64,000 nucleotides of DNA from an uncultured Chloroflexia bacterium (GTDB lineage Bacteria > Chloroflexota > Dehalococcoidia > SM23-28-2 > RBG-16-64-32): NCBI GenBank assembly GCA_963717065.1, contig CAVQVC010000001.1, positions 2,134,978 through 2,198,977 of the forward strand. Reading direction: 5' to 3'. Both the position numbers and the translations under genes were made by a program. The notes below the pieces were generated by a model that saw only the letters and a program-made list of their open reading frames with translations, had not been told where the DNA came from and did not search any database. Shown in pieces: positions 1,822 to 63,297 of this stretch; the stretch's first letter is position 1, and each line of letters begins with the position of its first letter.

Positions 1822-2610
1822 CTAGCCGCCGGCGTGATGATCTGGCGGCACCGGCGCCCTCGAGGACGCCTCGCCTTCTCCCCCTCTGTGGGTTAAAGGT
1901 TTTGCGGCCGGGATTCGCCAGGGCATCCCGATCGTTAGCAGCCCAGTCCCGGCCAGCAGCGCAGCCAGACCCAGGTAGACGAGAGCAATTGGCCCACCGG
2001 CATCCGTCCTCCCCCCAGCTGCGGGCACAGAACGTGGCCCGCTTGCTGTCCGCTGCACCGCGGCCGCGCCTGCCGTCTGTCCCTGTGATGCAGTCGCTGG
2101 TGCGGTGGACGAGTTCTGCGCCGCCGGTTGGGCCGGCGCCGCGGTTGGTGCGGGCGCCGTAGGGGCATCCCAGGCCCCCCCGTTACAGTTCAAGCCGCCC
2201 ACAGTCTTGCCGGCGGCATCGAGCAAGCGCACGTAATCAGGGGGATCGCCCGAGTCACGGAGGACCTCGTCGTTTGTCCACAGGTACAAGCCCTCGTTCG
2301 GCAGGCTTACCCCATGAGCTCCGGCCGCGACAACGATCTGCTCGCCTGGATCGAGGATTCCGGCCTGCGTCAGCGACATCTGCTGGCTGGCCTCCGGGTC
2401 GCTTCGAAGCTGCCAGCCCGCGAGGTCCTGGGCGGCGTCTCCATTGTTCGTGATGTATACGAGGTCGAACAGCTGGGGATGCCTGGCGCAATCTATGGCA
2501 GTGACCTGCACGGACGCCGCCGCGTGCGCGGGATTGCCGGAACCAATACCAGCGACAACAAGGATCACCGCCGCAACGGCGATCAAGAGATGGTTGCGCC
2601 GCGTTGTCAC
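1822..2610 (-). CDS. Lamin-tail-domain (LTD)-like secreted/anchored protein
   Basis: 262-aa ORF with N-terminal hydrophobic signal LLIAVAAVILVVAGIG. Core VYITNNGDAAQDLAGWQLRSD..GEQIVVAAG..LWTNDEVLRDSGDPPDYVRLLDAAGKTV fits the LTD pattern. Ala/Pro-rich linker and C-terminal hydrophobic helix PIALVYLGLAALLAGTGLLTIG. Lies 13 nt upstream of P1 on the same strand. Confidence 0.65.
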   Translation of the reverse strand: MTTRRNHLLIAVAAVILVVAGIGSGNPAHAAASVQVTAIDCARHPQLFDLVYITNNGDAAQDLAGWQLRSDPEASQQMSLTQAGILDPGEQIVVAAGAHGVSLPNEGLYLWTNDEVLRDSGDPPDYVRLLDAAGKTVGGLNCNGGAWDAPTAPAPTAAPAQPAAQNSSTAPATASQGQTAGAAAVQRTASGPRSVPAAGGRTDAGGPIALVYLGLAALLAGTGLLTIGMPWRIPAAKPLTHRGGEGEASSRAPVPPDHHAGG

Positions 2611-4573: not shown

Positions 4574-5104
4574 TCAGGCGAAACCCATCTCTATCTCGTG
4601 GGCCGGAATGAACTTCCGCCACCCCTCCTGGGACTCCAGGTACGGGTAGAAGCTCCTGAAGAAGCTGTACGTCGGGCGATATGGCTCCTTCGGTAGGTGC
4701 ATGTGTGCCTCGGTTGGTGTCCGCCCCGCCTTGCTGTGGTTGCACGGCTTGCAGGCCGCGACAACGTTCTCCCAGCTGTGGCCCCCGCCGCGGTGGCGCG
4801 GCAGCACGTGGTCCAGCGTCAGGTCACGCGTCTGCTTCCCGCAGTACTGGCAGGTGAAGCGGTCCCGGAGGAAGACGTCGCGCCTGGTGAGCCGTCCCTG
4901 GGGACGAGGGCGCCGGATGAGGTAGATCAGCCGGATTACCGAGGGGATCTCGAAAATGGCGGTTGAGCTGTGCAAGTATCCGCGGCCGTTTTCAATGGTT
5001 TCCGCCTTACCGCGGTCAAGCAGGACGAATGCCCTGCGTACATTACATACGTTCAGGGGCTCGTAGTTCTGGTTCAGTACTAGTACAGGTAGAGCTGGCC
5101 CCAA
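4574..5104 (-). CDS. HNH endonuclease family protein
   Basis: 176-aa ORF with CQYCGKQTRDLTLDHVLPRHRGGGHSWENVVAACKPCNHSKAGR (Cys pairs plus H-N-H core). The N-terminal VLVLNQNYEPLNV region is typical of this small HNH family. Confidence 0.85.
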   Translation of the reverse strand: MGPALPVLVLNQNYEPLNVCNVRRAFVLLDRGKAETIENGRGYLHSSTAIFEIPSVIRLIYLIRRPRPQGRLTRRDVFLRDRFTCQYCGKQTRDLTLDHVLPRHRGGGHSWENVVAACKPCNHSKAGRTPTEAHMHLPKEPYRPTYSFFRSFYPYLESQEGWRKFIPAHEIEMGFA

Positions 5105-5203
5105 TTTGCATCACCACGTAGGCCCATACTAGCAGAGCGGTTATAACCCCTGCAATCCTGACATTTGCTCGCTGGTTGACCGTTATGGATTGCCAGTTGA
5201 CGA

Positions 5204-5707
5204 CTAGGAACCGAGAAACGCGCTCACACGATCGTCGAAGTCGCTGGGAAGCAGTGTGAGTACGAAATCGACATCATCGATAAACAGCGGCGCCAGCACT
5301 GAACCGTGCACCGCGTTGTCCAGACCCAATCCGGGATACGCAGCGAAGACAAGAAGCAGCACTTCCACAAGGATCAGCCCCTTAAGGAACCCGAAGAAGG
5401 CTCCTCCCACGTGGTCCACCCACCCCAACTGGATCAGCGACACACCCTTCTTCAGCATGTACGCGATGATCTGGCCCATCAGCACAACGGACCCCAGCAG
5501 CACAAGGAACGACACCGCGAGCGCCGCATCATCGTCACCGATGAAGACCAGCACCTCTTTCTCGAAGTCCTGATACAGCAGCCCCGCGACGATGACGCCG
5601 ACGATCAGCGCCAGAAACGTGATCACTTCACGTATCAGCCCCGCCGAGTAGGCGGTGATCACGAAGCTAACGACCACCGCTATGATCAGAAAGTCCAGCC
5701 AGTTCAA
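5204..5707 (-). CDS. cvpA: CvpA family membrane protein
   Basis: 167-aa ORF. MNWLDFLIIAVVVSFVITAYSAGLIREVITFLALIVGVIVAGLLY plus further TM helices match the CvpA/colicin V production protein architecture. Confidence 0.75.
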   Translation of the reverse strand: MNWLDFLIIAVVVSFVITAYSAGLIREVITFLALIVGVIVAGLLYQDFEKEVLVFIGDDDAALAVSFLVLLGSVVLMGQIIAYMLKKGVSLIQLGWVDHVGGAFFGFLKGLILVEVLLLVFAAYPGLGLDNAVHGSVLAPLFIDDVDFVLTLLPSDFDDRVSAFLGS

Positions 5708-5796
5708 GCGCCGGCCCGAATCAAGTGCGCGTGGCTGGTTGCCGCCGAGATGCTTCGTGGCGCTTCGCGGCGATGCGGGGGTCCATGCCCCCTATC

Positions 5797-6819
5797 TTAT
5801 TGCAGGCGCAGCTTTGTCCACACCGGCAGGTGGTTCGACAGCTCGCCCCAAATGTCCTTGCTCCCAATGCCGCCGCCCAGAAGAGTCACCCCTCGCCCGA
5901 CGATCAGGTCGATTGCCACGCCGGACCGTGTCGTGACCCGGTCCTCAACTGGAAGTGCCGCGTGCGCATCGACGTAGCCGCGCTGGATCAGCGCCTGCGT
6001 TACGGGATCATCGCTCGTTTCAGCGCGAAGGTCATCGATGTAGCGCACGCAGTTCAGGTCTCCGCCCGCGATAACGCCGAACGGCTGTCGTAGTCCGTCC
6101 TCCGCTACCTCCGCCGATTGCGCAGACCGATATTCGTCTTCTTGCCGGGACTCCAGGTGCAGAGAATACAGGTGAAGGTACCGCTCTCCAATCTTCACAT
6201 CGGCCGCCAGCGCCATCCGGCCGCCCATCCGGGGCTCGCCCACCCTCAGCAGTCGCTGCCACCACGAGTACCAGCTCAGGTTCTTCTCGTGCCGGATAAG
6301 CCGCACATTCCCCAGGGGATACCGCGACAGAACAGCATTCCCGTGCTCGCAGCGGGAGCTCAGCCTGCCGCCGCCGGGACCCCAAAACCTTGGCAGTTCG
6401 ATGAACTCGACGCCGTAGACGTAGCACATACCCAGAGCCTTCGCGTATTCGCGTACCACGCTGCCCCAGCCACTTCTCTCGCATCCACGGTCCACCTCAT
6501 TCAACAGGAGGACGTCCGGATCCGGTATCGACGGGTCGCTCGAGAGCATCTCGATCTGCTCGGCCGCCCGCAGTCCCCGCTCGACGTTGTACGCGAGCAC
6601 CGTAATCTCGTCCTGAGGGGCGGCTTCGGCGGCGAACGATTCACCTTCGATCGTACAGTCGATCCGGACCCGGTCCGGGACCGGTGACGCGCAGAGCCTG
6701 TCCCGGCGCGGGTCGGGCGGGTCTGGTTGCCACGGGAACTCTACGAACTCGTATGCCATCACTCTTGCCATCGCCGATTGTACGCCAGAGCCCGCTCGCT
6801 TCCGCCTTAGGCCGAGCAC
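5797..6819 (-). CDS. Endonuclease/exonuclease/phosphatase (EEP) family protein (start uncertain; internal Met at about 6771 is plausible)
   Basis: 340-aa ORF with VLAYNVERG..LLLNEVD..GNAVLSRYPL..GGDLN..SNHLPVW, the EEP catalytic motif series. Confidence 0.75.
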   Translation of the reverse strand: MLGLRRKRAGSGVQSAMARVMAYEFVEFPWQPDPPDPRRDRLCASPVPDRVRIDCTIEGESFAAEAAPQDEITVLAYNVERGLRAAEQIEMLSSDPSIPDPDVLLLNEVDRGCERSGWGSVVREYAKALGMCYVYGVEFIELPRFWGPGGGRLSSRCEHGNAVLSRYPLGNVRLIRHEKNLSWYSWWQRLLRVGEPRMGGRMALAADVKIGERYLHLYSLHLESRQEDEYRSAQSAEVAEDGLRQPFGVIAGGDLNCVRYIDDLRAETSDDPVTQALIQRGYVDAHAALPVEDRVTTRSGVAIDLIVGRGVTLLGGGIGSKDIWGELSNHLPVWTKLRLQ

Positions 6820-17405: not shown

Positions 17406-17596
17406 AGGCCCTCCGTTCCCGAAAAGAAAAACCCTTGCCGCAGAGGCAAGGGATCGAACGAGCCTGACAGTGCTAGGACTGTCGGCTGACTGCTCTCATC
17501 ACCTCGGCGGGAGATTAAGCCCTTCCGGCGAAGGGCACCCGCTGTCTACGGCAGGATCGACTCTATTCGGCCGCTGTCCTGACGTCAGCTTCGCAA
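17406..17596 (-). promoter_or_regulatory. rplJ 5-prime leader (possible L10-leader autoregulatory RNA)
   Basis: 190-nt untranslated gap between the rplA stop and the rplJ start. It contains hairpins (cccttgccgcagaggcaaggg; gcccttccggcgaagggc). The position matches the classical L10(L12)4 operator. The consensus was not checked. Confidence 0.3.
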
Positions 17597-21378: not shown

Positions 21379-21454
21379 TGGAGCCCACGACCGGACTCGA
21401 ACCGGCGACCCCGTTCTTACCAAGAACGTGCTCTACCAACTGAGCTACGTGGGC
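21379..21454 (-). tRNA. tRNA-Thr (anticodon GGU), CCA encoded
   Basis: The minus strand reads GCCCACGTAGCTCAGTTGGTAGAGCACGTTCTTGGTAAGAACGGGGTCGCCGGTTCGAGTCCGGTCGTGGGCTCCA. It has a 7-bp acceptor stem, a GTTCGAGTC T-loop and the anticodon loop TTGGTAA. Confidence 0.92.
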
Positions 21455-21485
21455 CTGGTACTTCGCTCCTACTCACCGCCAGTAC

Positions 21486-21573
21486 TGGTGGCGGGAGCAG
21501 GATTCGAACCTGCGTAGCCCGTCAGGGCGCCGAGTTTACAGCCCGGTGCAATTGACCGCTCTGCCATCCCGCC
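21486..21573 (-). tRNA. tRNA-Tyr (anticodon GUA), long variable arm, CCA encoded
   Basis: The minus strand reads GGCGGGATGGCAGAGCGGTCAATTGCACCGGGCTGTAAACTCGGCGCCCTGACGGGCTACGCAGGTTCGAATCCTGCTCCCGCCACCA. The acceptor stem pairs and the anticodon loop is CTGTAAA. Confidence 0.9.
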
Positions 21574-21653
21574 AGCTTCGTCGGGAACTCACAGTGGCGA
21601 GGAACTGATAGCGCTGGCCCGCTCTGTTCCTGACTCCCGGCTTCCTTTCGCTC

Positions 21654-21728
21654 TGGAGCCGAAGGTGGGATTCGAACCCACAACCTAGCGATTACAAATC
21701 GCTTGCGCTACCATTGCGCCACTTCGGC
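21654..21728 (-). tRNA. tRNA-Thr (anticodon UGU), CCA encoded
   Basis: The minus strand reads GCCGAAGTGGCGCAATGGTAGCGCAAGCGATTTGTAATCGCTAGGTTGTGGGTTCGAATCCCACCTTCGGCTCCA. The acceptor stem pairs and the anticodon loop is TTTGTAA. Confidence 0.9.
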
Positions 21729-27220: not shown

Positions 27221-27838
27221 CTAGGCTATCGCCTGGATCGCGGCCAGCCCGCCGGCACCCGCCGCCGCGAGCCACATGTTCTTGATCGTCTTCCCGGCCA
27301 GCACAGCCAGGAAGAAGTTCTTCAGCGGCATCTCAACCGCACCCGCCGCTATGCCCGCGACATCGAACAGCGGATTCGGCACGATGGACATCAAGAACAT
27401 CGTGATCGTCCCGTGGCGGTCCATCCAGCCGTGGATCCGCTCGTACCCCGGTTGGTTCTCGACGACGACGCGCCCGCCGTAGCCGGCCGCGTAGCCCACC
27501 ATCTCCCCGAGCGCCTCACCCAACCCGGCTACCAGGCCGATCCAGACGAACGCCGGTACTCCGAGGAAGTCATTGAGGACCGCACCCGCGCCGACCGTGC
27601 TCGCGGCCGCCGGGGATGGCAGGAAGATGGAGGCGGCGCCTATCAGGTTGATCATGAAGACGCCGACGTACCCGTAGCTCTTCAGGTTGCTGACGTCGGC
27701 GCTGAAGTAGAAGAAGGCGATCGCGAACAGCGTGAGCAGCAGGCCAACGCCGACGAGCAACGTGTACTCGAAGCGCCAAACGAATCGCCTGCCTGCCGTC
27801 GCTACCACTTCGCTCTCAGCCTCCTCCTGCACCCTCAT
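27221..27838 (-). CDS. VTT/SNARE-associated (DedA/YqaA-like) membrane protein
   Basis: 205-aa ORF with GYVGVFMINLIGAASIFLPSP..GLGEALGEMVGYAAG..MFLMSIVPNPLFDVAGIAAG, the pattern of VTT-domain proteins. It lies directly downstream of the riboswitch/terminator. Confidence 0.7.
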   Translation of the reverse strand: MRVQEEAESEVVATAGRRFVWRFEYTLLVGVGLLLTLFAIAFFYFSADVSNLKSYGYVGVFMINLIGAASIFLPSPAAASTVGAGAVLNDFLGVPAFVWIGLVAGLGEALGEMVGYAAGYGGRVVVENQPGYERIHGWMDRHGTITMFLMSIVPNPLFDVAGIAAGAVEMPLKNFFLAVLAGKTIKNMWLAAAGAGGLAAIQAIA

Positions 27839-27901: not shown

Positions 27902-27927
27902 CCGCCTGCCGTAGGCGTCACGAATAA

Positions 27928-28062
27928 GCCTCTCCTTCGGTCGCCTGCGAGGTTAGCTGTCGGGTTCGGCGAGAAGGAGTCCGCCTATCCTTCCGAAGAA
28001 GGAATTCACCCCAAACGTTGGGTCCCCCGCTCCTTCCGCAAGCGGAAGGATTCGGCGCTCTG
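27928..28062 (-). promoter_or_regulatory. ydaO/kimA-type cyclic-di-AMP riboswitch aptamer
   Basis: The minus-strand RNA reads gcgccgaauccuuccgcuugcggaaggagcgggggacccaacguuuggggugaauuccuucuucggaaggauaggcggacuccuucucgccgaacccgacagcuaaccucgcaggcgaccgaagg. It contains the hallmark GGGGACCCA, GGGGUGAAU and CCGAACCCGACAGCUAACCUCG.AGGCG blocks as I remember them from RF00379. Confidence 0.7.
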
Positions 28063-28158
28063 CTATATATGACGTTCAGACCCTACCAAGGGTTTCCATA
28101 AGAGTCAAACGTTTTTTCGCCGCGACAGGTTACGTGAGTCTGTCGATTGGATCTGCTG

Positions 28159-34886: not shown

Positions 34887-36860
34887 ATGGACATTCCAAC
34901 GATATTCCTGTCATGGAGGAAGCTGACCACCTCATTTTTTATCGTTGCCGCGTTCATTGCTATCGCGTTCATTGCTATCTTTTGGAGCGAAGAAACCGCG
35001 AGCGCCGCAATCGAGCGAACCTACACCCTGCCGTTCTACGAGAACTCACCAATCACTTGCCCCTGGGGTCCCTATGAAAACTGTGGACTCGTAGGTCAGC
35101 ACAATGGCACCGACTACTCGGTTGGAAACAACACCACCGCCGGCGACAAAGTGGCCGCAGCCCTAGCAGGCACCGTTGGGCTGTACACTGACTTCGATCC
35201 GTTCAACGGTCTGGGATGCGGCTACTACGTGGTCATCGATCATGTCAACGGGCACAAATCGCGGTACTGCCATTTGACCAGCTGGGCGGTTTCGAACGGT
35301 CAAGCCGTCGGACGCGGGCAACTGATCGGCTTTGAAGGCAGTTCCGGTGCAACGGGCGTGAACCTTCACTTCGATGCGCGGGTGGATGCGTCCCCGGGGA
35401 ACTGTTGCAGTGGGACTTCAGTCGATCCATATGGCGGACCATACTCACCTAGTACATACCTCTGGAGTACGAACCCGCCCTCCTACCACTTGGCTGGCGC
35501 CGTGGTCAACATGCTGCGCAACGCCTCTGGCGAGCAAGCCAGTATTTTCCCCTGGAGCGAGACCGGAGCGGCTGACGCTTTCATCTGGAACTCTCCATCC
35601 CCTCTCAGCGGGAGCAAGTTCGTGCGAACAGGCGGCGGCGCCAGCGGGGGCTCTGTATACCAGGACGTGGTGACGAGTACGCCGAACGACGCGTATTACC
35701 TCTTCTCTCTGTGGGCACGGATGTCCTTGGGGTGCTCACCGGTCGACCTGAAGGTTTGGGGCCTGGGTGGGTCGGCCGGAGATGAGAGCTATTTAACTCA
35801 CCTCAATACGTTGTGCACCAACTGGACTTACGTGAGTGTCCCAGGAGATTTCGCGTACGCGCACAACCGGGTTCGCGTCGAGGTGTATATCGGCGCGAAC
35901 AAAACGATCGACATCGACGCAACGGAGCTGGTGCCCACCAAGAATATGAACGCTTCGTTCGAACATCCGGGTAAGGCGGGTAACGGTACCCCGTACTGGA
36001 ACAAGATTGACGGCACCACGGGCTGGTCCTTCCTTACGAGCCCGGGCCCGAAGAGCGGCGCTCGGTTCATGCGCGCGCAGAGAACAGTTCCGGCTGGGCC
36101 GTCCGACTCCAAGATATGGGACGACATACCCGTGGTACCGGTATCCGGAGAGAGTTATACGTTCTCGGTCTGGCTTCGCGCCGTATCGCCTACGGTGACG
36201 GGACTGATCAGGATCCACACGCTCGGCCCAACCTACGAGAAAACCGAGACCTGGTTTACTCTCAACAGCACCGCCTGGAAGGAGTGGTCGGCTACGCTTG
36301 AGCCGGTGGCTGTAGGGCATACCGGTCTCCGGATCGAAATCTACTTCTTCAATCAGGGTTCATACGACATAGACGGCACACAGGTCGTACAAAACCTTCT
36401 CGCGCGTTCGTCGTTCGAATCCGGCGCGACTCCGGAGTGGGGTGCGTTTGAGGACATCGACCCTGACCCGAACACGACGACGTACCTGAATGTCATCCAG
36501 CCAGTCGGTGGCGCCCGCGATGGACTCAAGCATCTGCAGATGAGCACGAACACGCCGAATGGCTCCGTGTTTCAAGACATTCCGAGAACTGCTCTGGTAA
36601 ACCAGAGCTACGATTTCGTGATCTGGGTCCGCTGCGTGAATATCTGCCCGGTGACCGGTTCCGTCAAACTCGTTGCTATGCCGAGTGAAGCAAGCATCAC
36701 GACGTTCAGCGCAAGCGCCGTGTGGACTCCCGTTGTCGCGACAATTGACGTCTCATCAGGCGGATTCCCGTTACGCGCTCAGATCCATATGAGTCAAACC
36801 GGGCGCAACTATGACGTGGACGCGACTGGGAACTCGATCGGCATCGCGCCAAGCTACTGA
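34887..36860 (+). CDS. M23 family metallopeptidase fused to three CBM4_9-like jelly-roll repeats
   Basis: 657-aa ORF with N-terminal TM, M23 motifs HNGTDY..VIDHVNGHKSRYCHL..GSSGATGVNLHFD, then three ~150-aa repeats. Each repeat starts N(M/L)xxxxSFE-like and contains VYQD/IWDD/VFQD..Y.F.(L/V)W(A/L/V)R..ID(I/V)DAT. Confidence 0.85.
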   Translation: MDIPTIFLSWRKLTTSFFIVAAFIAIAFIAIFWSEETASAAIERTYTLPFYENSPITCPWGPYENCGLVGQHNGTDYSVGNNTTAGDKVAAALAGTVGLYTDFDPFNGLGCGYYVVIDHVNGHKSRYCHLTSWAVSNGQAVGRGQLIGFEGSSGATGVNLHFDARVDASPGNCCSGTSVDPYGGPYSPSTYLWSTNPPSYHLAGAVVNMLRNASGEQASIFPWSETGAADAFIWNSPSPLSGSKFVRTGGGASGGSVYQDVVTSTPNDAYYLFSLWARMSLGCSPVDLKVWGLGGSAGDESYLTHLNTLCTNWTYVSVPGDFAYAHNRVRVEVYIGANKTIDIDATELVPTKNMNASFEHPGKAGNGTPYWNKIDGTTGWSFLTSPGPKSGARFMRAQRTVPAGPSDSKIWDDIPVVPVSGESYTFSVWLRAVSPTVTGLIRIHTLGPTYEKTETWFTLNSTAWKEWSATLEPVAVGHTGLRIEIYFFNQGSYDIDGTQVVQNLLARSSFESGATPEWGAFEDIDPDPNTTTYLNVIQPVGGARDGLKHLQMSTNTPNGSVFQDIPRTALVNQSYDFVIWVRCVNICPVTGSVKLVAMPSEASITTFSASAVWTPVVATIDVSSGGFPLRAQIHMSQTGRNYDVDATGNSIGIAPSY

Positions 36861-47643: not shown

Positions 47644-48579
47644 CTAGTCGTCGTTGCTTTCCTTGTCGCCCGGGGCGTCGGTGCCGTGGCCGCTGTCCTG
47701 GCCTGAATCGTCGTCCTGTCCGTCGTCGTCCGAGCCTTCATGATCGCCGCTGTCGGGTCCCGAGTTGTCGTCACTCTGACCGTCGGCCTCTGGAGACTTG
47801 TCGGCAGGGGAGCTGTCCTCGTGGTCCTCGGCTTCGCCACCGCCGCCAGGCCCGGAGTTGTCCTCGTCGTCAACATCGTTGTCCTCGACGTCGCCAGGGC
47901 CACTGTTGTCGTCGCATTCGTCATCGAGGGGTGTTACTTCCGGCTGCTCCGAAGACGCACCACAATCGTCGCCTTCATCTGTACTCCCGGGCCCGCTGTT
48001 ATCGCTCGGCCCCGAATTGTCATCGCCAACGTCTTCGTCGTCGACGTCACCATTGGCGCCGTCGCCCACGTTGACGCAGTCGTCGTCGGCTTCGGGTGTG
48101 GCCTCCGGGGAGGGCGCCGGGCTCGCCTCGGGCGTCGCGTCCGCGACGCAGGCGTCGTCACTGTCGTGCGCGTCACCGTCGTCCTGGCCGTTCTCGGCCA
48201 CGCCCATCACGCGCAGCGAGCCGCCGGCGACATCAGGCCCGCCGAGAGCTGCCGACACTCCAGCCGCGCTTCCCAGCAGCAGTAGCACGCCGGTCGCCAT
48301 CGCCGCCGCCTTTAATAGGGACGAGCTGAGGATTGCAGGAATCATGGGTTGACCTCCGTCCTGGGCAGCCACCGCCGAGAGCATCGCCTGCCGGCCGCGT
48401 GCGATGGCAGCCGCGTCCGCTTCCGCCCGGGGCGTGGCGCCCAGCTCCTGCCAGAGCCCCAAGTGACGCCGGAGCGCTTCCGCCTGATCCGGGAAGCGCG
48501 CGATCACCCGCTCGGGGTCGGCGCCGCCGTCGATCTGCTTCAGGGCTTCGGCCAGGGTCCGGTAGAATGCGCTGTCCAT
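47644..48579 (-). CDS. Anti-sigma-factor-like membrane protein with extremely acidic DNSGP-repeat C-terminus (set B)
   Basis: 311-aa ORF. The N-terminus FYRTLAEALKQIDGGADPERVIARFPDQAEALRRHLGLWQEL parallels the set C anti-sigma N-terminus. It has a TM helix (LLKAAAMATGVLLLLGSAAGV) and repeated D(D/E)NSGP(G/S/D) units. It lies 80 nt downstream of sigma gene 48660-49289. Confidence 0.7.
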   Translation of the reverse strand: MDSAFYRTLAEALKQIDGGADPERVIARFPDQAEALRRHLGLWQELGATPRAEADAAAIARGRQAMLSAVAAQDGGQPMIPAILSSSLLKAAAMATGVLLLLGSAAGVSAALGGPDVAGGSLRVMGVAENGQDDGDAHDSDDACVADATPEASPAPSPEATPEADDDCVNVGDGANGDVDDEDVGDDNSGPSDNSGPGSTDEGDDCGASSEQPEVTPLDDECDDNSGPGDVEDNDVDDEDNSGPGGGGEAEDHEDSSPADKSPEADGQSDDNSGPDSGDHEGSDDDGQDDDSGQDSGHGTDAPGDKESNDD

Positions 48580-48659: not shown

Positions 48660-49289
48660 CTACTCCGGTTTCCAGTCATCGCTCAGCTTTTCGCGGAGCG
48701 TCGCCACTGCCCGCGCGTGCAGCGAGTAGACGGCGCTGCGTTCCTTGCCGATCACCGAGGCGATCTCGTCCGCGCTGAGGCCGACCAGGAAGCGCAGGAC
48801 CAGCACCTCCCGCTGCGAGTCGGGCAGCGCGGCGATCGCCCGCTGCAGGTCCATCCGGTCGTCCGCCGTATCCGTCTCCAGCGGGCCCGGCGCTGCTGGC
48901 TCCTCCGCCTCCTCGCGCCCCCGCGAGAACATCCGCCTCACGGCACGGACGGGAGACCCCACGCCGCTGATGCCTCTCGCGCGCACGGCCTCCCGCTGGT
49001 GGTCCGCCACCTGGTTCCGCGCGATCACGTACAGCCAGGCCAGCAACGGCCGGCCCGTGTGCTTGTACGAGCGGATCCCCTTGATCGCCGCGACGAACAC
49101 GCCCGCCGTGATGTCCGCCGCCGTGTCGGGGTCGAATACACGCGCGTGCACGTACCTGTACACGTACGGGTAATGCTCGTCGTAGATCAGCGCCCAGGCC
49201 TCCTGGGAACGCGCCTTCGCGAGCTCCACCAGCGCGGCCTCGTCCATCTCACGTTCTCGGGTTGGGGCGTCTGTCACGTCAACGGGCAT
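48660..49289 (-). CDS. ECF-type RNA polymerase sigma factor (set B)
   Basis: 209-aa ORF with WALIYDEHYPYVYRYVHARVFDPDTAADITAGVFVAA (region 2) and LSADEIASVIGKERSAVYSLHARA (region 4). Confidence 0.85.
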   Translation of the reverse strand: MPVDVTDAPTREREMDEAALVELAKARSQEAWALIYDEHYPYVYRYVHARVFDPDTAADITAGVFVAAIKGIRSYKHTGRPLLAWLYVIARNQVADHQREAVRARGISGVGSPVRAVRRMFSRGREEAEEPAAPGPLETDTADDRMDLQRAIAALPDSQREVLVLRFLVGLSADEIASVIGKERSAVYSLHARAVATLREKLSDDWKPE

Positions 49290-50177: not shown

Positions 50178-51797
50178 TCATGGCCACGGGCACGTCGGGC
50201 CCGGGCTGCCGAAGGCCCTAGCGCCGCCCAGCATCGGCGGCGTACCGGTCGTCGCCCCTGCCGCGATCAGCGACGTGAAGTCGTTCAGGTTGATCCACTC
50301 GTTGTATGTTCCCTTCCCCGGGTGGAAGTCCCAGCGCGAGCTGAAGTCCGGGTGCCCCGGGCTCGTCCCGAAGCGCCTCGGCCCCGCCAGGAAGCTCGTC
50401 AGGTCCTGCAGCGTGATGGTTTCCTGGCTAATACCCGGGGCCGCATACACGTTCGAGGGCCAGCCATCGGGACCGCAGGGGTCCTGGTCCGGCGTCCCAA
50501 TCTTGAACTGCGCCTCGGAGTACATCCCCATCTGCACGGGGCCGCCCGGGCAGCCATCGTCCGTCACTGCATCATCCGGCGGCCCGAAGATCGAGCCGTC
50601 GTCGTTCAGCCCGTTGCCGCAGAGCAGCGTGCCCGCCTCCCGCGCGCCGGTGTAGCCGTCGCCGTCGCAGTCGAAGGCTTCGGCGCCGGGCGGCAGCGCC
50701 TCGTCGATCTGCACGTCGCCGTCGTCGCTGACGCCCGCAAACACGCCGTCGATACGTTCTGGTCGACGGGTGGAATTCATCGGATTCCCACCGCACGGCG
50801 TCTCATCGGCGTCGGCCACCCCATCGTTGTCGTCGTCGTTGTCGCAGACGTCCCCCATCGCATCGCTGTCGTGGTTGAGCTGATTGCTGTTGGGTATCGT
50901 GGGGCAGTTGTCCACCGAATCTGGGATCCCGTCTCCGTCGGTATCAACGTAGGATGGGCAGGCCTGGTTTACGGCCATCGTCCCGGACAGTGTCAGCAGG
51001 GGCATCCATGCCGCCATCGTGACATCTATGTGGGTGTTGTTGGTTAGATTAATCGGGTGCAGCCCTGTGCCGATTTCAACGCCGGGACTGGTCACGTTCA
51101 GCCTGAACAGCGGGCCGTCTCCCCATTCATGGCCGGAGAAGGAGGCGTCGGCGCCGTTCGCGGAGAAGACGCCGTCACTGTCGCCGTTGGCGTCACCGGC
51201 GTTGGTCGGCGCGCTGGAGCCTTCCTGGCCCATCAGCATGTTGGCATAGCCTGCGCTAAAGCCGGCGATGACGCCGCCGGGGTTTGGATAGCTGAGGTTT
51301 GCCCCGTAGGCCATGGCTCGATAGGCCTGAGGAATGTCGTCGGCCACAACGTCGACGGTGATCGAGTCTACCGCCTCTTCGTCGGCGTCGATGATGTTGC
51401 CGGTGTTCGTGTTCATCCGCGCGCAGGGCTCGATCGTACCGATGACACCGACTGCCGGACACCCGTCGTCCGGAACCGTATCCGCGTCCTCATCTATGGA
51501 GTTACCCATCCCGTTCGCAGCGCACTCGCCCGCGCTGAACGACTCGAACGGGTCAAAGCTCATCGGGAACGCAGGTTTCGTGAAGTTCGTGGGCGCGAAC
51601 GGCCCCACCGGCGCGCCGTCCTCCGGGTCCATGTCGACGGCCATCAGCGCCATGCCGCCGGGCGGCTGTGCCTGCGCCGACGGTTGACCATCGAACGAAG
51701 CGACCGCGACCAACAACAGGCCCACCAGCGCAGCGGCGCCAAGGCCGAACGTTCGTCGGGTGTTTATCGTTCTCAACGCTGCCTTCATTGCACTCAT
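50178..51797 (-). CDS. Secreted modular protein, paralog P3: cohesin-like N-domain + TSP3 repeats + conserved C-terminal module
   Basis: 539-aa ORF with signal peptide ([27 protein letters not shown]). N-domain [83 protein letters not shown]-terminal [42 protein letters not shown]. Confidence 0.85.
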
Positions 51798-51815: not shown

Positions 51816-53294
51816 CTACGGCCAGGGGCACGATTGGCCGAACGCCCGGATGCCGCCGAGCATCGGCGGGGCGCCGGTGTACGCTTCGCTGGCGACGATG
51901 GACGTGAAGTCGAGGATGTTGATCCAGTCGACAAGGACGGTCGTGCCCGGGTAGATGTCCCAGCGCATGTCGTAGGCATCGGGCCCGTCGACAGACTCGG
52001 TGTCGCCGGGGCTGGTGCCCAGCCTGCGGGGAGTTGCGATGAAGCTCGTCAGGTCCTGGAGGGTGATCGAGTTCTCGCTCCCCGGCCCCCGATAGACGTT
52101 CGTGGGCCAGTCATCGCCGCAGGGGTCCTGCTCCTCGGTGCCAATGCGGAAATCCGCCTCGGACCAGTCGCCGACCTGCGGCGGGCCGCCCGGGCAGCCG
52201 TCGTTCACGACTACGTCGTCCGGAGGGCCGTAGATCATGAAGTCGTCGTTGGTGCTGTTGTCGCAGAGGTACGAGCCGGATTCCCACTGGTTGTCGTAGC
52301 CGTCGCCGTCGCAGTCGTACCGCTCGGAGTCCGGTGGAGACGGCTCGTCTATCTGCGTATCGCCGTTGTCGTCCGCGCCGGCGAAGACGCCGTCGATGCG
52401 CTCGGGTCTCGAGAGGGCGCTCCAGCGGTCGGAAGAGCACCAGGCCTCGTCGTAGTCGAACAGGCCATCGTTGTCGTCGTCCTTGTCGCAGGCGTCGCCC
52501 TGCGAGTCGCCGTCGTTGTTGGCCTGCGTAGGATTGGCGTTGACGGGACAGTTGTCGCACGCGTCACCGGGCGGATCGGTGTCGCCGTTGGCCTGGGCGG
52601 GGTTGGCGACCGTGGGGCAGTTGTCGGCGGCGTTGGATATGCCGTCTGCGTCGAGGTCGTTGTCGCAGGCGACGGTATCGATAGAAATAGAAGCAGAGTT
52701 GACCGTGACCGCCGCGTGCGCGACGCCGTTGACATCGATGTGGGCGGCGTTCAGCAACGTTAGCGGGAACTCCCCGGGAGTTACGGGTGGCACGGTCGAT
52801 ACCTCGAGGCGGTCGAGCACTCCGGAGCCGCTCTCGCCCGGCGATGGGCCGGTATCACTGATATCGGCTGCGAACGTACCATCCGCATCGGGCAGGCCAT
52901 CGCTGGCGCTCGAAATGATCGATCCCGGGGTGGCCGCCAGCAGATAGCCGGTGTCCTGGGAAACGACTTGCAGGGACGGCGCCGGATAGGTCAGCTCGTA
53001 GCCATACCCGGCGATCGAAGTCGAGGAGGGGATGTTCGTCGCCGTGATGTCGAGGGTGAGCGTGTCAACAGCATCCTCATCAGCGTCCGCGATGTCGTTC
53101 TCGTTGATGGCTGCGCAGAATTCAGGACTCCCAAGGGAGGAGCCACCGTTTGCGGGAGTCATCTCCGGGTGCAAGTCAATGGACATGGCGCCCATCCCGC
53201 CGGGAGCCTGGGCGTTCGCGGGAGGTTGCGCGCCGACACAAACGAATGCGAGGAGGGCGGCGACGAGAATAGCGATGAGGAAGCGGTAGATCAC
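51816..53294 (-). CDS. Secreted modular protein, paralog P4: cohesin-like N-domain + TSP3 repeats + conserved C-terminal module
   Basis: 492-aa ORF with signal peptide (FLIAILVAALLAFVCVGAQPPANAQA). DTLTLDITATNIPSSTSIAGYGYELTYPAPSLQVVS..GSGVLDRLEVST. DNCPTVANPAQANGDTDPPGDACDNCPVNANPTQANNDGDSQGDACD. C-terminal [39 protein letters not shown]. Confidence 0.85.
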   Translation of the reverse strand: MIYRFLIAILVAALLAFVCVGAQPPANAQAPGGMGAMSIDLHPEMTPANGGSSLGSPEFCAAINENDIADADEDAVDTLTLDITATNIPSSTSIAGYGYELTYPAPSLQVVSQDTGYLLAATPGSIISSASDGLPDADGTFAADISDTGPSPGESGSGVLDRLEVSTVPPVTPGEFPLTLLNAAHIDVNGVAHAAVTVNSASISIDTVACDNDLDADGISNAADNCPTVANPAQANGDTDPPGDACDNCPVNANPTQANNDGDSQGDACDKDDDNDGLFDYDEAWCSSDRWSALSRPERIDGVFAGADDNGDTQIDEPSPPDSERYDCDGDGYDNQWESGSYLCDNSTNDDFMIYGPPDDVVVNDGCPGGPPQVGDWSEADFRIGTEEQDPCGDDWPTNVYRGPGSENSITLQDLTSFIATPRRLGTSPGDTESVDGPDAYDMRWDIYPGTTVLVDWINILDFTSIVASEAYTGAPPMLGGIRAFGQSCPWP

Positions 53295-58761: not shown

Positions 58762-61700
58762 CTAGGCCCACTCCACAGCCCAGATCTCGTGCTTACCCGA
58801 TAGCCCCTTGAGTTCCACCGTTCTGGACTCGCCCCAGGAAACGTCAGAACCGGCCACCAGCGCCTTCACCACGCTCGAAGACAGGATCTCACCACCGTGT
58901 GCCTGCGAGGCGACACGCGCCGCCATGATGACGTTGCGTCCGAAGAAATCTTCGCCTTCCTTAATCACCTCGCCAGCGTGGAGACCCACCCTCACTTGCA
59001 CCGGCTCCTCGGCGCTGCCGTTTCGCGCGACCAGTGAATTCTGAATCGCAGATGCGCAGGCGAGCGCCTTCGCGGCCGACTGGAAGGCGACCATGAACCC
59101 GTCACCCTCGCTCTTCACCTCGAAGCCGGCGTTGGCCTTGATCTGCTCGCGGACGATCGCGTTGTGCTCCCTCAGAACCTCCATGAACTTCGCGTCCCCC
59201 AGGCGGTCGGCCATCGCGGTGGATCCCTCGATGTCGCTGAACATTATCGTGACGGTGCCATCCGGTGCCGCGTGGGGCTTGAGATCCGGCTGCTCAGCCA
59301 GCGCCTCTCGCGCCACGGTGTCGATGGAAGTCCCGATATCGCTGAGATCAATCCCCTGCGCCTTTACCTTCAGCTTGAGTGCCTGCTCGACGTCCCATTT
59401 CATCCCGATCTCCTGGAAGATGTCGAGCGCTTCCGAGAGTAGGCGGATCGCGCGCTCCTTGTCGCCGGGTCCGCCGCGGGCGAGCAGCATTCGGGCGTGG
59501 TCAGACTGCGTTCGCCCGACATAGGGTCGCGCACCGATGCGCGTGTTCATCTCCAGCGCCTCCTGGAACAACTCCTCAGCCTCATCCCAGCGTTCGAGCG
59601 TGGCGGCGAGCATGCCCAGCGGCCGCGCTGCCGAGCCGTCACATATGATCCCGTTGCCAATAACGATGTTCCGGTGGCGGTAAGGCGCAAGCATCTCGTG
59701 CAGTGTGGCCGCCCGCGCTCTATCCCCGAAGAACTCAGCGATGGTGGCCAGACGGTTCATCGCAGTCGCCCATCCAAAGTCCTGGGGCACGGCAGTGAAA
59801 TTCTCGGCTGCCAGTCGCTCAAAGATTTCCAGGCACTCCGCTTCCCGACCGGAGACGAGGTAACAGAGCGACAGGGCGGGCAACCAGGCGGCGATTTCCG
59901 GATTCTCATCTACCACGCGCTTGATCATCGGCTCCATGTCGCCCGCACGGCCCTGCTGTAGACGGATGTTGAACAGTTGCACCGCGAACGCCTGTAGTCC
60001 GAACTGAATCTGCTGGCGCTGCGAGTGCGCGAATGCCCGCTGGGATTCCTGCTCACCGTCGGCGAGCCGGCCGGACATGATGTGCCTCATCGCCGCCCAG
60101 AACGGCTTGTAGCCGAGGTAGAACATCTCACGGACCTCTTCGGCCAGTTGCACAACCCTCGCGATCGCCTCGTCGGCCTCCTCAATATCACCAAGTTCAA
60201 GCGAGTTGGTGACAATCGCGTCAAGCGACGCGATCTGTAACCTCTTGTCGCCGGACTGTTCTGCCAGACGGGCAAGATCTCTGGCGATGCTAGCGCGCTC
60301 TTCAGTATTTTGTGGCCCTCCGAGGAGGAACAAGAGAGCTGATAGCGCCTCACCCTCCATCTGCGGCTCGCCAAGCCGCCGTGCCATTTCAGCCGATTCG
60401 CGGCCTGCCTCGATGAATTCCGCCCAGTCCGCTCCAGGAGTACTTCGCCGCGCCAGGGCAGTGAGCAGCCTGCAACGCAACCCGCTGTCCCCTTCTTCGA
60501 CGATCGCCAGGGCGTGCTCCACCTCCGTCCTTCCCTCGCCTGTCATTTGAACAGAACCGCGAGTGGCGGCGTTTGCATACGTCAGAGCCATTTCACCAAT
60601 CAGCTCCGGGTCTGCGAGATCCTTGGCGAGCGACACCCCGGGTCGCAGGTTATCAAGTGCCCGGTCTGCTTCACCCGCCCTCACCAGAGACCACGCTTGC
60701 AACATGAGTAGATCGCAACGGAGCCCGCCGTCTGGCTGCGCTCGCAGGTCGAGCGCCTGGAGGGCAAGCGTATATTGCTCCGCCGCTTCTTCGTGCGCTA
60801 GCTGCGCCGTCGCCCGGTCTCCCGCGCGCCGCGCATAACCTATCGCCTTGTCGACATCGCCTCCGGGGGCGGCCTGGAAGAAGTGGTGCGCAAGCTCGGC
60901 CAGGTGCGGATCTTCGTTGTCGGCGTACAGCCGTTCCAGCGCCTCGCCGATCTGCCGGTGCATCAATACGCGCCGCGGCGTGCTCAGCTCGTCGTACAGC
61001 GTCTGCCGGATCAGGGCGTGGGTGAAGTCGTAAATCCCGGCCTGGTCGCCCTTGCGCTCCTGGAGCAGCTGCGCCCCCAGCGCCTCATCGAGCAGGTCGA
61101 GGAGCTTTGCCTCGTGGACGTCGCTCACCGCCTTCAAAACGTCCCACGTGAAGCCGCCGGTTATCGTGGACACAACTGTGAGGATGCGGTTGCATTCGTC
61201 GCTAAGCCGGGAGAGGCGCCTTCCGATTACCTCGCGCACCCCTTCCGGGATGCCAAGTTCGGAGATGTCGGTAATGCCGCCCGCGGTCCAGCGCCCGTTC
61301 TCGTCGCGGAACAGCCTGCCTTCTTCCACCAGGTGGCTGAGCACCTCGCGCACGAAGAAGGGGTTGCCCTCTGTCTCGCGGGAGAGGGCGGCGGCAAGCA
61401 ACCGCCTTCCCGCCTCGGTCTGCTCGTCCGTCTCTTGCTCCGAGACCGCTCCGAGCAGCGCGACGATGTCATCGACCGGCAGGCCGCGCAGGAGGACGCG
61501 GTGGTACACGGGTTCCCGCCTGAGGGTTGAGAGCACCTCCGCCAACGGGTGTGTTCGCTCCAGTTCGACGTCACGGTAGGCGCCAAGGATCAGCACGCGG
61601 TCGCTTCGCAGGCCGCGTACGAGGTACTGCAGCAGCAGCAACGACGGCTTGTCGGCCCAGTGCAGGTCGTCGAGGACAAGCACGATCGGGTTAGCCGCCG

Positions 61701-63297
61701 CCGCGTTCCGCAGGAACTCGGTGACACTCTGGAACAGGCGATGGCGCTCGGCGTCCCCTTCCAGCGGTGGTGACTGGGGAATGTCGGGGAAGCGCTGGCG
61801 GATCTCGGAGACGAGGGTCGCCACTTCGGGCGCGCCCTGGCCCAGCTCGCCTCGTACAGTGTCGTCCGGGCGGCCGCGAGTGTACTCGCGGAACGCTTCG
61901 ACGAACGGCAGATAGGGGACTCCGACGTCGCCTTCGTAGCAGTGCCCGGTGATCACCTGCGCACCCCTGAGGCCCGCGTAGACGCCGAACTCCTGCGCCA
62001 ACCGCGTCTTGCCGATCCCAGGCTCCCCCACGAGCATCAGCAGCGCGCAGCGGCCCGAAAGCGCGCCGTCCAGCGCCGTCTTCATCTGTCCCATCTCCTC
62101 CCGCCGGCCAACGAAGCTCCCCCATGCCACACCCTGCAGGTCTGCAGCTGCGTTAGCCGCGGCCGGCGCCTCGCTAGCGATGGACATCTGGCTCGCACTC
62201 TCTCGTATCCGGCGCAGCTCGACTCCTACGGACGCAGCGTCGGCGGGACGGTCGTCCGGTGCCTTGGCGAGGAGGCGCGTAATCAGCGTCTCGAGGCCGC
62301 GAGGGACGGAGGGCGCGTGGTAGCTGGGCGCGACGGGGGCTGTGTTGATATGCTGCGAAATCACGGCGACGGCGTCCTCGCCTAAGAACGGCGGGCGTCC
62401 GGTCACCATTTCGTAGAGGATGCACCCTAGCGAGTAGAGGTCGCTGCGCGCGTCGGCCGCTCGGCCGAGGGCCTGTTCCGGTGGCATGTAGCCAACGGTG
62501 CCCACCATCATTCCCTGGAGGGTGAGTCGGCTGCGGTCCAGCGCCACGGCCAACCCGAAGTCGCCGATCTTGGCCGTGCCGTCTTCAGTCAGCCAGATGT
62601 TCCCCGGCTTCAAGTCGCGGTGGACGATCCCCCGCGAGTGAGCGTGGTCCAGGCCGTCGCAGATCTGTTCGGCGACGCGTATTGCGTCTTCGCTGGGCAT
62701 CTGTCGATTCGTCTCTGAGCTCAGCATCCCGTCGAGGTCGCCGCCGCCCATGTACTGCGAGACGATGTACGGCTGATTGCCGTCGTCGCCGATGTCAAAC
62801 ACGGTGACGATGTTCGGGTGGTCGCCCAGCCTCCCCATCGCCTGCGCCTCGCGCTTCACGCGCGAGAGGCCTGCTTCGTCCAGGCCGTCTGTCTTGATCG
62901 CTGCGACCGCCACCTCGCGGTCCAATTTCGAGTCGTGCGCGAGGTAGACGCGTTTGCGCCCGCCTTCTCCTAGGAAGTCCTTCACAGCGTAGCGGCCTTC
63001 GGCGAACGACGCCGGAAGCGCCGGTGAGGGTGCCAGCGTTGGCGTAGGGGTGTCCCTTCCGGGAAGGACGGCGCCCTCCGTGATGACGGGCGTCGTGGTG
63101 GCTTCGGTCATGGGCTTGCCGCAGTCGCCGCAGAAGCGCTCGCCCGGTTCGTTGGCAGCGCCGCATGACGGACAGGCGGACGCAAGCGAGCCGCCGCACT
63201 GAGCGCAGAAGCGCCTCCCCTCGCGGTTTTCCTCGCCACAGGCATTACAGCGCAACTGCGTTCCCCCAGTCTGGTGCCATGGTGACCAAATGGTCAC
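58762..63297 (-). CDS. Multidomain signalling protein: double zinc-ribbon + Ser/Thr protein kinase + AAA/STAND ATPase + TPR-like helical repeats + class III adenylate/guanylate cyclase
   Basis: 1511-aa intact ORF. Zinc ribbons CNACG..CAQCG..CPSCG..CGDCG. Kinase VAVAAIK, HRDLKPGNIWL, DFGLA, GTVGYMPPE. P-loop LVGEPGIGKTRL and LVLDDLHWAD. Long helical repeat region. Cyclase VTIMFSDIEGST..GDGFMVAF..VRVGLHAGEV..FFGRNVIMAARVASQAHGGEIL. Confidence 0.9.
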   Translation of the reverse strand: MTIWSPWHQTGGTQLRCNACGEENREGRRFCAQCGGSLASACPSCGAANEPGERFCGDCGKPMTEATTTPVITEGAVLPGRDTPTPTLAPSPALPASFAEGRYAVKDFLGEGGRKRVYLAHDSKLDREVAVAAIKTDGLDEAGLSRVKREAQAMGRLGDHPNIVTVFDIGDDGNQPYIVSQYMGGGDLDGMLSSETNRQMPSEDAIRVAEQICDGLDHAHSRGIVHRDLKPGNIWLTEDGTAKIGDFGLAVALDRSRLTLQGMMVGTVGYMPPEQALGRAADARSDLYSLGCILYEMVTGRPPFLGEDAVAVISQHINTAPVAPSYHAPSVPRGLETLITRLLAKAPDDRPADAASVGVELRRIRESASQMSIASEAPAAANAAADLQGVAWGSFVGRREEMGQMKTALDGALSGRCALLMLVGEPGIGKTRLAQEFGVYAGLRGAQVITGHCYEGDVGVPYLPFVEAFREYTRGRPDDTVRGELGQGAPEVATLVSEIRQRFPDIPQSPPLEGDAERHRLFQSVTEFLRNAAAANPIVLVLDDLHWADKPSLLLLQYLVRGLRSDRVLILGAYRDVELERTHPLAEVLSTLRREPVYHRVLLRGLPVDDIVALLGAVSEQETDEQTEAGRRLLAAALSRETEGNPFFVREVLSHLVEEGRLFRDENGRWTAGGITDISELGIPEGVREVIGRRLSRLSDECNRILTVVSTITGGFTWDVLKAVSDVHEAKLLDLLDEALGAQLLQERKGDQAGIYDFTHALIRQTLYDELSTPRRVLMHRQIGEALERLYADNEDPHLAELAHHFFQAAPGGDVDKAIGYARRAGDRATAQLAHEEAAEQYTLALQALDLRAQPDGGLRCDLLMLQAWSLVRAGEADRALDNLRPGVSLAKDLADPELIGEMALTYANAATRGSVQMTGEGRTEVEHALAIVEEGDSGLRCRLLTALARRSTPGADWAEFIEAGRESAEMARRLGEPQMEGEALSALLFLLGGPQNTEERASIARDLARLAEQSGDKRLQIASLDAIVTNSLELGDIEEADEAIARVVQLAEEVREMFYLGYKPFWAAMRHIMSGRLADGEQESQRAFAHSQRQQIQFGLQAFAVQLFNIRLQQGRAGDMEPMIKRVVDENPEIAAWLPALSLCYLVSGREAECLEIFERLAAENFTAVPQDFGWATAMNRLATIAEFFGDRARAATLHEMLAPYRHRNIVIGNGIICDGSAARPLGMLAATLERWDEAEELFQEALEMNTRIGARPYVGRTQSDHARMLLARGGPGDKERAIRLLSEALDIFQEIGMKWDVEQALKLKVKAQGIDLSDIGTSIDTVAREALAEQPDLKPHAAPDGTVTIMFSDIEGSTAMADRLGDAKFMEVLREHNAIVREQIKANAGFEVKSEGDGFMVAFQSAAKALACASAIQNSLVARNGSAEEPVQVRVGLHAGEVIKEGEDFFGRNVIMAARVASQAHGGEILSSSVVKALVAGSDVSWGESRTVELKGLSGKHEIWAVEWA

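Follow-up and report, generated by a model that had tools for sequence, protein, structure and literature searches.

Several described systems equip secreted proteins with a common C-terminal element. Type I dockerins (PF00404) are usually C-terminal on signal-peptide proteins with varied catalytic passengers. They are ~60–70 amino acids (aa) long and consist of two homologous loop-helix segments, in which the loop starts with an acidic residue and an Asp, reached by the pattern (I/V)-x-x-x-D, caps the helix. The C-terminal domain of the type IX secretion system (T9SS) and the PEP-CTERM, LPXTG and MYXO-CTERM tags are also common C-terminal elements on heterogeneous secreted proteins of one phylum. 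Thrombospondin type 3 (TSP3), bacterial TSP3 and double-disulfide repeats (PF02412, PF18884 and NF033662) provide another point of comparison. Here we describe a C-terminal module that has features in common with all of these. It ends four proteins, P1 to P4, encoded in a 64,000-nucleotide stretch of contig CAVQVC010000001.1 from an uncultured Chloroflexia bacterium (the window), and it is a sizeable, previously unannotated extracellular domain family. Soils, sediments and the deep ocean all harbour abundant Chloroflexota; to our knowledge, how they retain proteins at their surface is poorly known.

The module is like type I dockerins in the position, the carriers and the segment layout described above, and cohesin-type domains are present in the same lineage and within P3 and P4 themselves. 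It differs from dockerins in its longer core (~115 aa), in its loops, which span 16–17 residues instead of 11 and do not have the D-x-N-x-D-G pattern, and in an additional N-terminal segment (YSEAQFxIGT...PCG) and Pro-rich strap, closed by a conserved Cys pair. The TSP3-type repeats resemble its DxDGDGY leader and its Cys-bracketed mini-repeats, but they cover only the first ~45 residues of the module and not the 115-aa core. In contrast to the T9SS and sortase-type tags, the module has neither a predicted beta-sandwich nor the combination of a motif, a transmembrane (TM) helix and a basic tail, and it can be internal or tandem.

Four window proteins with a common tail

The open reading frames (ORFs) of P1 (60–1808, 582 aa), P2 (2694–4418, 574 aa), P3 (50178–51797, 539 aa) and P4 (51816–53294, 492 aa) are all on the minus strand. 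A sequence-only reading of the window had proposed that these four ORFs end in one collinear module. The ORFs, their alignment and a profile search bore this out. In a full-length alignment, the N-terminal halves were unrelated and the C-terminal part was collinear. The trimmed tails aligned with 56 invariant columns and showed 47–63% identity to the P3 tail. When a hidden Markov model (HMM) of the tail was searched against the six-frame translation of the whole window, exactly four copies were found, with E = 1e-70 to 4e-106, and the next best match had only E = 0.16.

By translation, tail alignment and the family profile (E = 5e-76), the P3 module comprises 165 aa (residues 375–539; 50181–50675, minus strand, as are all positions in P1 to P4 below). 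The stretch 50178–50675, to which the module had been assigned, corresponds precisely to the final 165 codons of P3 together with its stop codon. The tail HMM and tail alignment placed the other copies at 51819–52319 in P4 (167 aa), 63–659 in P1 (199 aa) and 2697–3284 in P2 (196 aa), the last two with two mini-repeats each.

In all four proteins the module follows TSP3-type repeats, in agreement with the earlier description. Pfam TSP_3 scored 34–40 bits in P3 and P4 and remained below its threshold, at ~20 bits, in P1 and P2. The P3 repeat (50880–50948, 34.2 bits) links the N-domain to the module; the P4 repeat is at 52593–52670 (39.6 bits). All four proteins begin with a strongly hydrophobic signal segment, and none has a hydrophobic segment near its C-terminus. 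In exact look-ups, P3 had no record, and P4 led only to a short Logan contig.

Searches for a named family and a known fold

With the four full proteins as queries, Pfam and NCBIfam matched only the upstream TSP3-type repeats, apart from a weak Cohesin match in P4. The P3 tail had no match among all PDB chains by phmmer at E ≤ 10, nor did a profile of 49 tail sequences at the same limit. The 49 tails, searched against Pfam at E ≤ 10, matched nothing but TSP3_bac, and no dockerin. The TSP3_bac matches, seen on 13 of the 49 tails (best E = 7e-4), were confined to the acidic leader, outside the core. None of the NCBIfam sorting-domain models matched the tail, and Por_Secre_tail, the model of the T9SS C-terminal domain, gave no match to it in Pfam or NCBIfam. 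A literature search for an earlier description of the module returned nothing relevant.

The chain ends were also unlike those of known sorting tags. Over the last 170 aa of the four proteins, the maximum Kyte-Doolittle value in a 19-residue window was 0.73–1.24. The chains end in CPWP, CTGD or CTDPP, and the LPXTG, PEP-CTERM or MYXO-CTERM layout of a motif, a TM segment and a basic tail was not seen in the window proteins.

AlphaFold gave a model too poor to use for the full 165-aa P3 tail with 49 sequences (predicted local distance difference test, pLDDT, 59.8; predicted template modelling score, pTM, 0.36). For the P2 core (2697–3083), which is 56% identical to the P3 core, 135 sequences gave pLDDT 77.6 and pTM 0.71, with pLDDT of 82–93 over residues 51–100. 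The P2 core model has three short helices, among them DLTSF (52–56) and LTDFTAMIA (91–99), and the rest is mostly ordered loops; no T9SS-type beta-sandwich was predicted in it. Two short amphipathic segments pointed out in the sequence-only reading, residues 86–96 and 128–138 of the P3 tail, coincided with predicted helices in both AlphaFold models. A Foldseek search with the P2 core model gave nothing significant among 350,542 PDB chains (best E = 4, probability 0.01) or in a viral library. The module fold therefore has no detectable solved neighbour, although Foldseek is weak on small loop-rich domains. A match of the poor P3-tail model to 5k39_B, a type II cohesin-dockerin chain, had E = 7 and was discounted as evidence.

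Since sequence, profile and Pfam searches gave no confident match to a named domain, and neither did NCBIfam or Foldseek, the suggestion that no named domain covers the module stands.

Family size, taxonomic range and architecture

A profile search of a set of 5.8 billion proteins gave 238 matches (best E = 1e-69). Their source names were only "hypothetical protein" or "thrombospondin type 3 repeat-containing protein", and they came from metagenome-assembled genomes (MAGs) of Chloroflexi, Chloroflexota or Dehalococcoidia. Among 1.84 billion representatives at 50% identity, there were 814 matches at E ≤ 1e-3, 681 at 1e-10 and 231 at 1e-30. When species-representative genomes were scanned with a back-translation of the 4-sequence alignment, starting from the acidic repeats, the four loci recovered were all in Chloroflexota or Dehalococcoidia MAGs. 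The lone taxonomic exception was a cluster mate of the relative P0235 (P0308, MEK6967777.1), labelled by NCBI as "S8 family serine peptidase [Nanoarchaeota archaeon]". This is a hint that the family may extend beyond the Chloroflexota to DPANN archaea, the alternative being a mis-binned contig; it is only a hint because the label rests on MAG binning.

In 118 of 124 domain matches, the module ended at most 6 residues from the C-terminus, and most full-length members had a signal peptide at the N-terminus. In the 92 full-length members, the domains upstream of the module included TSP_3 (27 members), PD40, FG-GAP, BNR, beta-helix/NosD and GSDH, and further passengers were Peptidase_S8, met-zincin, lectins, RHS, CARDB and SURNod19. 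About 10 relatives had an N-domain of the P3/P4 type. This variety of unrelated extracellular passengers agrees with the earlier proposal that the module is portable.

Some copies are not terminal. P0121 carries two tandem modules joined by a Pro/Thr linker. In P0139 and P0201 the module is followed by a cupredoxin-like domain, a label based on a weak, sub-threshold Pfam Copper-bind match in P0139 and on sequence resemblance only in P0201. In P0159 and P0229 it lies upstream of RHS/YD repeats. These non-terminal copies are true architectures and not merged gene calls. The module is therefore an autonomous folding unit that is usually, but not necessarily, terminal.

Genes for module proteins tend to be found near one another. 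There are two groups in the window; locus L002 has two adjacent genes, and L005 has two genes within 4 kb. On the contig of P0038, which bears the module, five genes of secreted type form a run; a 962-aa gene in it is matched by P0126 (962 aa), whose contig has an equal length, and a 721-aa gene matches the family member P0129 in length only.

Anatomy of the module

The module has two parts, namely one or two Cys-bracketed acidic mini-repeats and then the core. The mini-repeat, C-x-N-x-x-N-D-D ... N-D-G-C-P, resembles the calcium loops of TSP3 repeats and EF-hands. In P3, it is at 50541–50639, with E13, C19, D26, D40, G41 and C42 invariant. The P3 core, delimited by the core alignment and homologous to the modelled P2 core, is at 50181–50543 (121 aa, ending in CPWP). 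Compared with P3 and P4, one additional Cys-bracketed acidic mini-repeat (C..DxDxDxxINDGC) is inserted in P1 and P2.

Four Cys columns were conserved at 96–100%. Of 193 sequences, 182 had all four Cys, and 4 lacked the first two jointly (--CC). The last Cys column was 98% conserved and its partner column 100%. A disulfide between Cys1 and Cys2 probably closes the acidic mini-repeat (LCxNxxNDD...NDGCP), and another between Cys3 and Cys4 would link the very C-terminal end with the beginning of the core; in P3, the expected pairs are Cys393-Cys416 and Cys441-Cys536. Local pairing of this kind fits because the first two Cys are lost together and because P1 and P2 add a whole Cys-bracketed unit. 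In the 135-sequence alignment of the core, two Cys and three Asp (D465, D490 and D506 in P3) were invariant, in the order C, D, D, D, C, and G, E, G, T, W, P, P, R, P, G, I, P and A were nearly so.

The core consists of two homologous halves. By hhalign, these matched over 21 columns with E = 1.9e-6, probability 90% and a score of 27.7, whereas reversed-sequence controls scored ~10 with E of 0.05–0.07. Each half follows the pattern (W-P-x-D or R-W-D) - Gly-containing loop - (I/V)-x-(I/L)-x-D-(L/F)-T-x-(F/L)-(L/I)-A. The consensus of repeat 1 is W-P-x-D ... I-T-I-x-D-L-T-S-F-L-A and that of repeat 2 is R-W-D ... W-I-N-x-x-D-L-T-A-L-I-A. An acidic residue or Asn (D, E or N) followed W-P-x in 177 of 193 sequences; in repeat 2, the R and the Asp of RWD and the helix-cap Asp were invariant. 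From the acidic residue at the loop start to the helix-cap Asp, the span was typically 17 (or 15) residues in repeat 1 and 16 in repeat 2. In P3, repeat 1 is at 50385–50462, with a helix predicted on DLTSF, and repeat 2 is at 50259–50336, the site of a canonical dockerin repeat in P0235 (see below). After the repeat pair there is a Pro/Gly-rich strap with the conserved last Cys (50181–50258 in P3; consensus PPM.GG.RAF.GP.C), which ends in PPM(L/F)GG.RAF.GP.C and then ~3 residues.

A conserved segment with the motif (Y/F)DCDGDGY precedes the module in P3 (50676–50850), in P4 and in several relatives, among them P0121 and P0162. It is absent before the module in P1 and P2 and appears to be a further sub-module.

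Resemblance to dockerins and a hybrid copy

The layout of the two helix segments had been compared to that of dockerins, with the reservation that the canonical calcium loops were missing. Both parts of this description held. Like dockerins, the core has two tandem homologous loop-helix segments, given the homology of its halves and the helices predicted on both. The typical span of its loops is 16–17 residues against 11, and the canonical pattern D-x-[DN]-x-[DN]-G-x-[ILV]-x-x-x-D occurred once in 240 module proteins, in P0235.

P0235 is an I9-S8 protease with a canonical two-repeat dockerin (residues 526–583), a complete module (654–767) and a hybrid copy (806–895). The module profile aligns to the hybrid through repeat 1 and R-Y-D (51 bits, E = 7e-18). 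Directly after R-Y-D, where repeat 2 would be, stands the textbook dockerin loop-helix DLNFDGSINQTDINIVKKYM. For the whole protein, Pfam Dockerin_1 scored 38.6 bits against a cutoff of 22.9, with the best stretch at 855–891. From the repeat-1 cap Asp to the Asp of R-Y-D there are 25 residues, the modal spacing in the family. As the repeat spacing is kept in the hybrid, the invariant Asp of R-W-D in the module corresponds to position 1 of the EF-loop. A search of the large database for relatives of the hybrid segment found none. The internal duplication and P0235 are suggestive of, though not proof of, a tie between the module and dockerins in design and perhaps in descent.

Cohesin-type domains of the same lineage

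The N-domains of P3 (50982–51536) and P4 (52680–53219) are homologous (phmmer E = 3e-20) and appear to be divergent members of the cohesin type (PF00963). Pfam Cohesin scored 18–21 bits on the window proteins, below its cutoff of 24.1; the P4 match had 20.6 bits and E = 5e-4. Among close relatives, 5 of 11 had sub-threshold Cohesin matches, and of 67 homologs detected by profile in the large database, 22 carried a precomputed PF00963 annotation. One homolog was named by NCBI as "cohesin domain-containing protein [Chloroflexota bacterium]". The earlier label "cohesin-like" for P3 and P4 was thus upheld. The labels given to the N-domains of P1 ("PHM-like") and P2 ("LTD-like") found no support in Pfam or PDB sequences at E ≤ 1.

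A weak additional Cys-bracketed acidic mini-repeat was seen in P3 at ~51405–51506 (residues ~98–131; HMM i-E 0.2). It falls inside the segment delimited as the cohesin-type N-domain.

Cohesin-type domains are common in the lineage, and the 67 cohesin homologs have three kinds of ending. About 30, the membrane-anchored surface cohesins, end in a TM helix and an Arg-rich tail, ~14 end in an element that we call GDVDC, and others have TSP3 repeats as in P3 and P4. That one passenger type comes either with a TM anchor or with the module lends indirect support to an anchoring or docking role of the module.

The GDVDC element, GDVDCxGxVNAVDALKILRxVAxL...PCP, is a C-terminal, Cys-bracketed stretch of ~40 residues with a single dockerin-like repeat. 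It was found in P0244, P0248, P0249, P0251, P0252, P0258, P0263, P0264, P0267, P0268, P0274, P0280 and P0291, and in the gene at 4585–6630 (plus strand) of locus L001. It resembles the module in its lineage, its C-terminal position, its two bracketing Cys, its P-C-P end and the cohesin-type N-domain that it shares with P3 and P4. It differs in its length, in having one canonical loop-helix and in matching solved dockerins, which the module does not; in hhalign, where it served as positive control, its match to them had E = 2.4e-4. The GDVDC element and the module never occurred together in the 240 module proteins. The combination of a cohesin and one dockerin repeat in one small protein, as in the carriers of this element, is unusual.

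Genes for membrane-anchored cohesins (signal peptide, cohesin, TM helix and RRRR) occur singly or as two or three in tandem, as at L006 (10001–11578) and L007 (10001–12944). Their neighbourhood is conserved over three contigs and includes genes for FtsY, PMT_2 glycosyltransferases, NADH dehydrogenase subunits, PIN, phosphoglycerate mutase, TIM and MiaA. This conserved housekeeping block suggests that the anchored cohesins are a core, vertically inherited surface component.

Possible functions of the module

The architecture of the proteins suggests a targeting or anchoring function. We give about an even chance to the proposal that the module localises exoproteins as a docking or anchoring unit that derives from dockerins and is stabilised by calcium and disulfides. 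Its disulfides, its calcium binding, its docking function, its descent from dockerins and the identity of its partner are the parts that we infer. In such a mechanism, a protein would be exported through its N-terminal Sec signal peptide, and the module would fold extracellularly, where it would form disulfides and bind calcium through the conserved acidic residues of the loop starts and helix caps. Its loops might be EF-hand or dockerin loops grown by 4–6 residues. Through non-covalent contacts of the pseudo-symmetric helix pair, the passenger would be docked to a cell-surface receptor or to other exoproteins. In that case, the exoproteome of these Chloroflexota might carry the module as an address tag derived from dockerins. 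P3 and P4, which carry both a cohesin-type domain and the module, could act as adaptors or self-assembling units.

The membrane-anchored cohesins of the same lineage are a candidate partner, though we regard this identification as unlikely. A broader version, in which the module is an expanded-loop, disulfide-stapled descendant of dockerins that binds membrane-anchored cohesins in a phylum-wide surface-display system of Chloroflexota, is likewise improbable. If this version is true, proteins like P3 and P4 would be adaptors that build multi-protein surface assemblies, and the lineage would have a cohesin-dockerin network outside the cellulosome, with dockerins of a new class.

Several results weigh against docking by a dockerin descendant. 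Pfam Dockerin_1 matched none of the 49 tails at E ≤ 10 and none of the four full proteins. By hhalign, the core matched the solved dockerins 1ohz_B, 8x39_A (two domains) and 4fl4_A with a probability of 0.4%. No dockerin or EF-hand protein was found by Foldseek with the model of pTM 0.71, and DSSP assigned no beta-bridge between the two loops of that model, whereas an EF-hand pair would have one. Neither Pfam nor the loop-pattern and profile-profile tests made the module a member of the dockerin family. P0235 is the sole hybrid among 240 proteins and could be a recombinant rather than an evolutionary intermediate. With respect to the partner, no module genes were found near the membrane-anchored cohesin genes in their conserved block. 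P0235 holds both a dockerin and the module, which speaks against a simple cohesin-module pairing, and since the GDVDC element matches dockerins, the cohesins of this lineage may already have a conventional partner.

The main rival explanation, which we consider doubtful, is that the module anchors proteins to the envelope through a non-protein polymer such as peptidoglycan, a secondary cell-wall or S-layer glycan or an exopolysaccharide, in the manner of SLH, LysM or calcium-dependent carbohydrate-binding modules (CBMs). In its favour, the cohesins of the lineage have a separate dockerin-type element, and a canonical dockerin beside a full module in P0235 implies that their targets probably differ. 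C-terminal position, portability, variety of passengers and secretion fit a glycan anchor equally well, and calcium-assisted binding of sugars would be in keeping with the conservation of Trp, Arg and Asp in W-P and R-W-D. However, neither sequence nor fold searches revealed similarity of the module to CBM, SLH, LysM or peptidoglycan-binding families, and a duplicated loop-helix layout is typical of dockerins, which bind proteins. A purely structural role, as a calcium- and disulfide-stabilised cap or stalk end for the TSP3 linker with no specific ligand, would explain why the module always follows acidic repeats of calcium-binding type and why its model is poor in regular secondary structure and rich in Pro and Gly. 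We give this little credence: residues of surface type are highly conserved across ~800 divergent clusters, and the module is kept across unrelated passengers and duplicated within one protein, all of which a conserved ligand explains better.

The strongly C-terminal location (118 of 124), the conserved terminus (RAF.GP.C-x3) and the presence on a wide range of the exoproteome could also be read as marks of a domain for secretion or sorting. Like the T9SS C-terminal domain, it would be the target of a machinery dedicated to export or processing, and it might be cut off later. A role as secretion signal is nevertheless quite improbable because the members examined already have Sec-type signal peptides and because there are genuine internal or tandem copies in P0121, P0139, P0159 and P0201. 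In addition, no conserved machinery was seen in the neighbourhoods examined, and the module has no hydrophobic segment, no known sorting motif and no match to an NCBIfam sorting model. The similarity of the tails might finally be suspected to be a compositional or low-complexity artefact of Asp/Gly/Pro-rich sequence, since TSP3_bac matches their leading part, which is acidic and resembles repeats. This is refuted: W, F, R, M, C and T keep a fixed order among the 56 invariant columns, the core is not of low complexity, and the matches reached E = 1e-70 or better in the window and up to 1e-75 in databases.

Whatever it binds, the module marks varied secreted proteins of Chloroflexota, including proteases, dehydrogenases, lectins, RHS toxins and cohesins. 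It fills an annotation gap of ~800 clusters at 50% identity that are now labelled "hypothetical" or "TSP3 repeat protein". Knowledge of its partner would give a handle on the organisation of the exoproteome and a signature for surface-retained proteins in MAGs. It might also provide protein engineering with a new docking pair that depends on calcium and is orthogonal to the cohesin-dockerin pairs of clostridia.

Gene neighbourhood in the window

The gap between P4 and P3 is 18 bp. The gene at 1822–2610 (minus strand), between P2 and P1, encodes a signal peptide, a Lamin Tail Domain (LTD), an Ala/Pro-rich linker and a C-terminal TM segment, and the gaps in this second group are 83 and 13 bp. 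Because the gaps are short, both groups look like operons, P2, the LTD gene and P1 probably forming one. The idea that a TM anchor and the module are interchangeable on an N-domain shared by the LTD protein and P2 was rejected, as BLASTP found no similarity between the two; the same argument holds instead for the cohesin N-domain, which is either TM-anchored or module-bearing. No LTD neighbours were seen at the other module loci examined.

About 1 kb downstream of P3 there is a gene for a sigma factor of the extracytoplasmic function (ECF) type (48660–49289, minus strand). It is followed by a 311-aa ORF (47644–48579, minus strand) with no Pfam match, possibly an anti-sigma factor. A 1511-aa signalling protein at 58762–63297 (minus strand) combines a zinc ribbon, a Ser/Thr kinase, an AAA_16 ATPase, TPR and an adenylate/guanylate cyclase. 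An M23 peptidase with CBM_4_9, encoded at 34887–36860 (plus strand), does not carry the module. A cyclic di-AMP (ydaO-type) riboswitch (27927–28067, minus strand; 103 bits) lies directly upstream of a gene for a membrane protein of the VTT/DedA family (27221–27838, minus strand). Other RNA features of the window are an L10 leader (17417–17569, minus strand) and a tRNA-Thr/Tyr/Thr cluster (21379–21728, minus strand).

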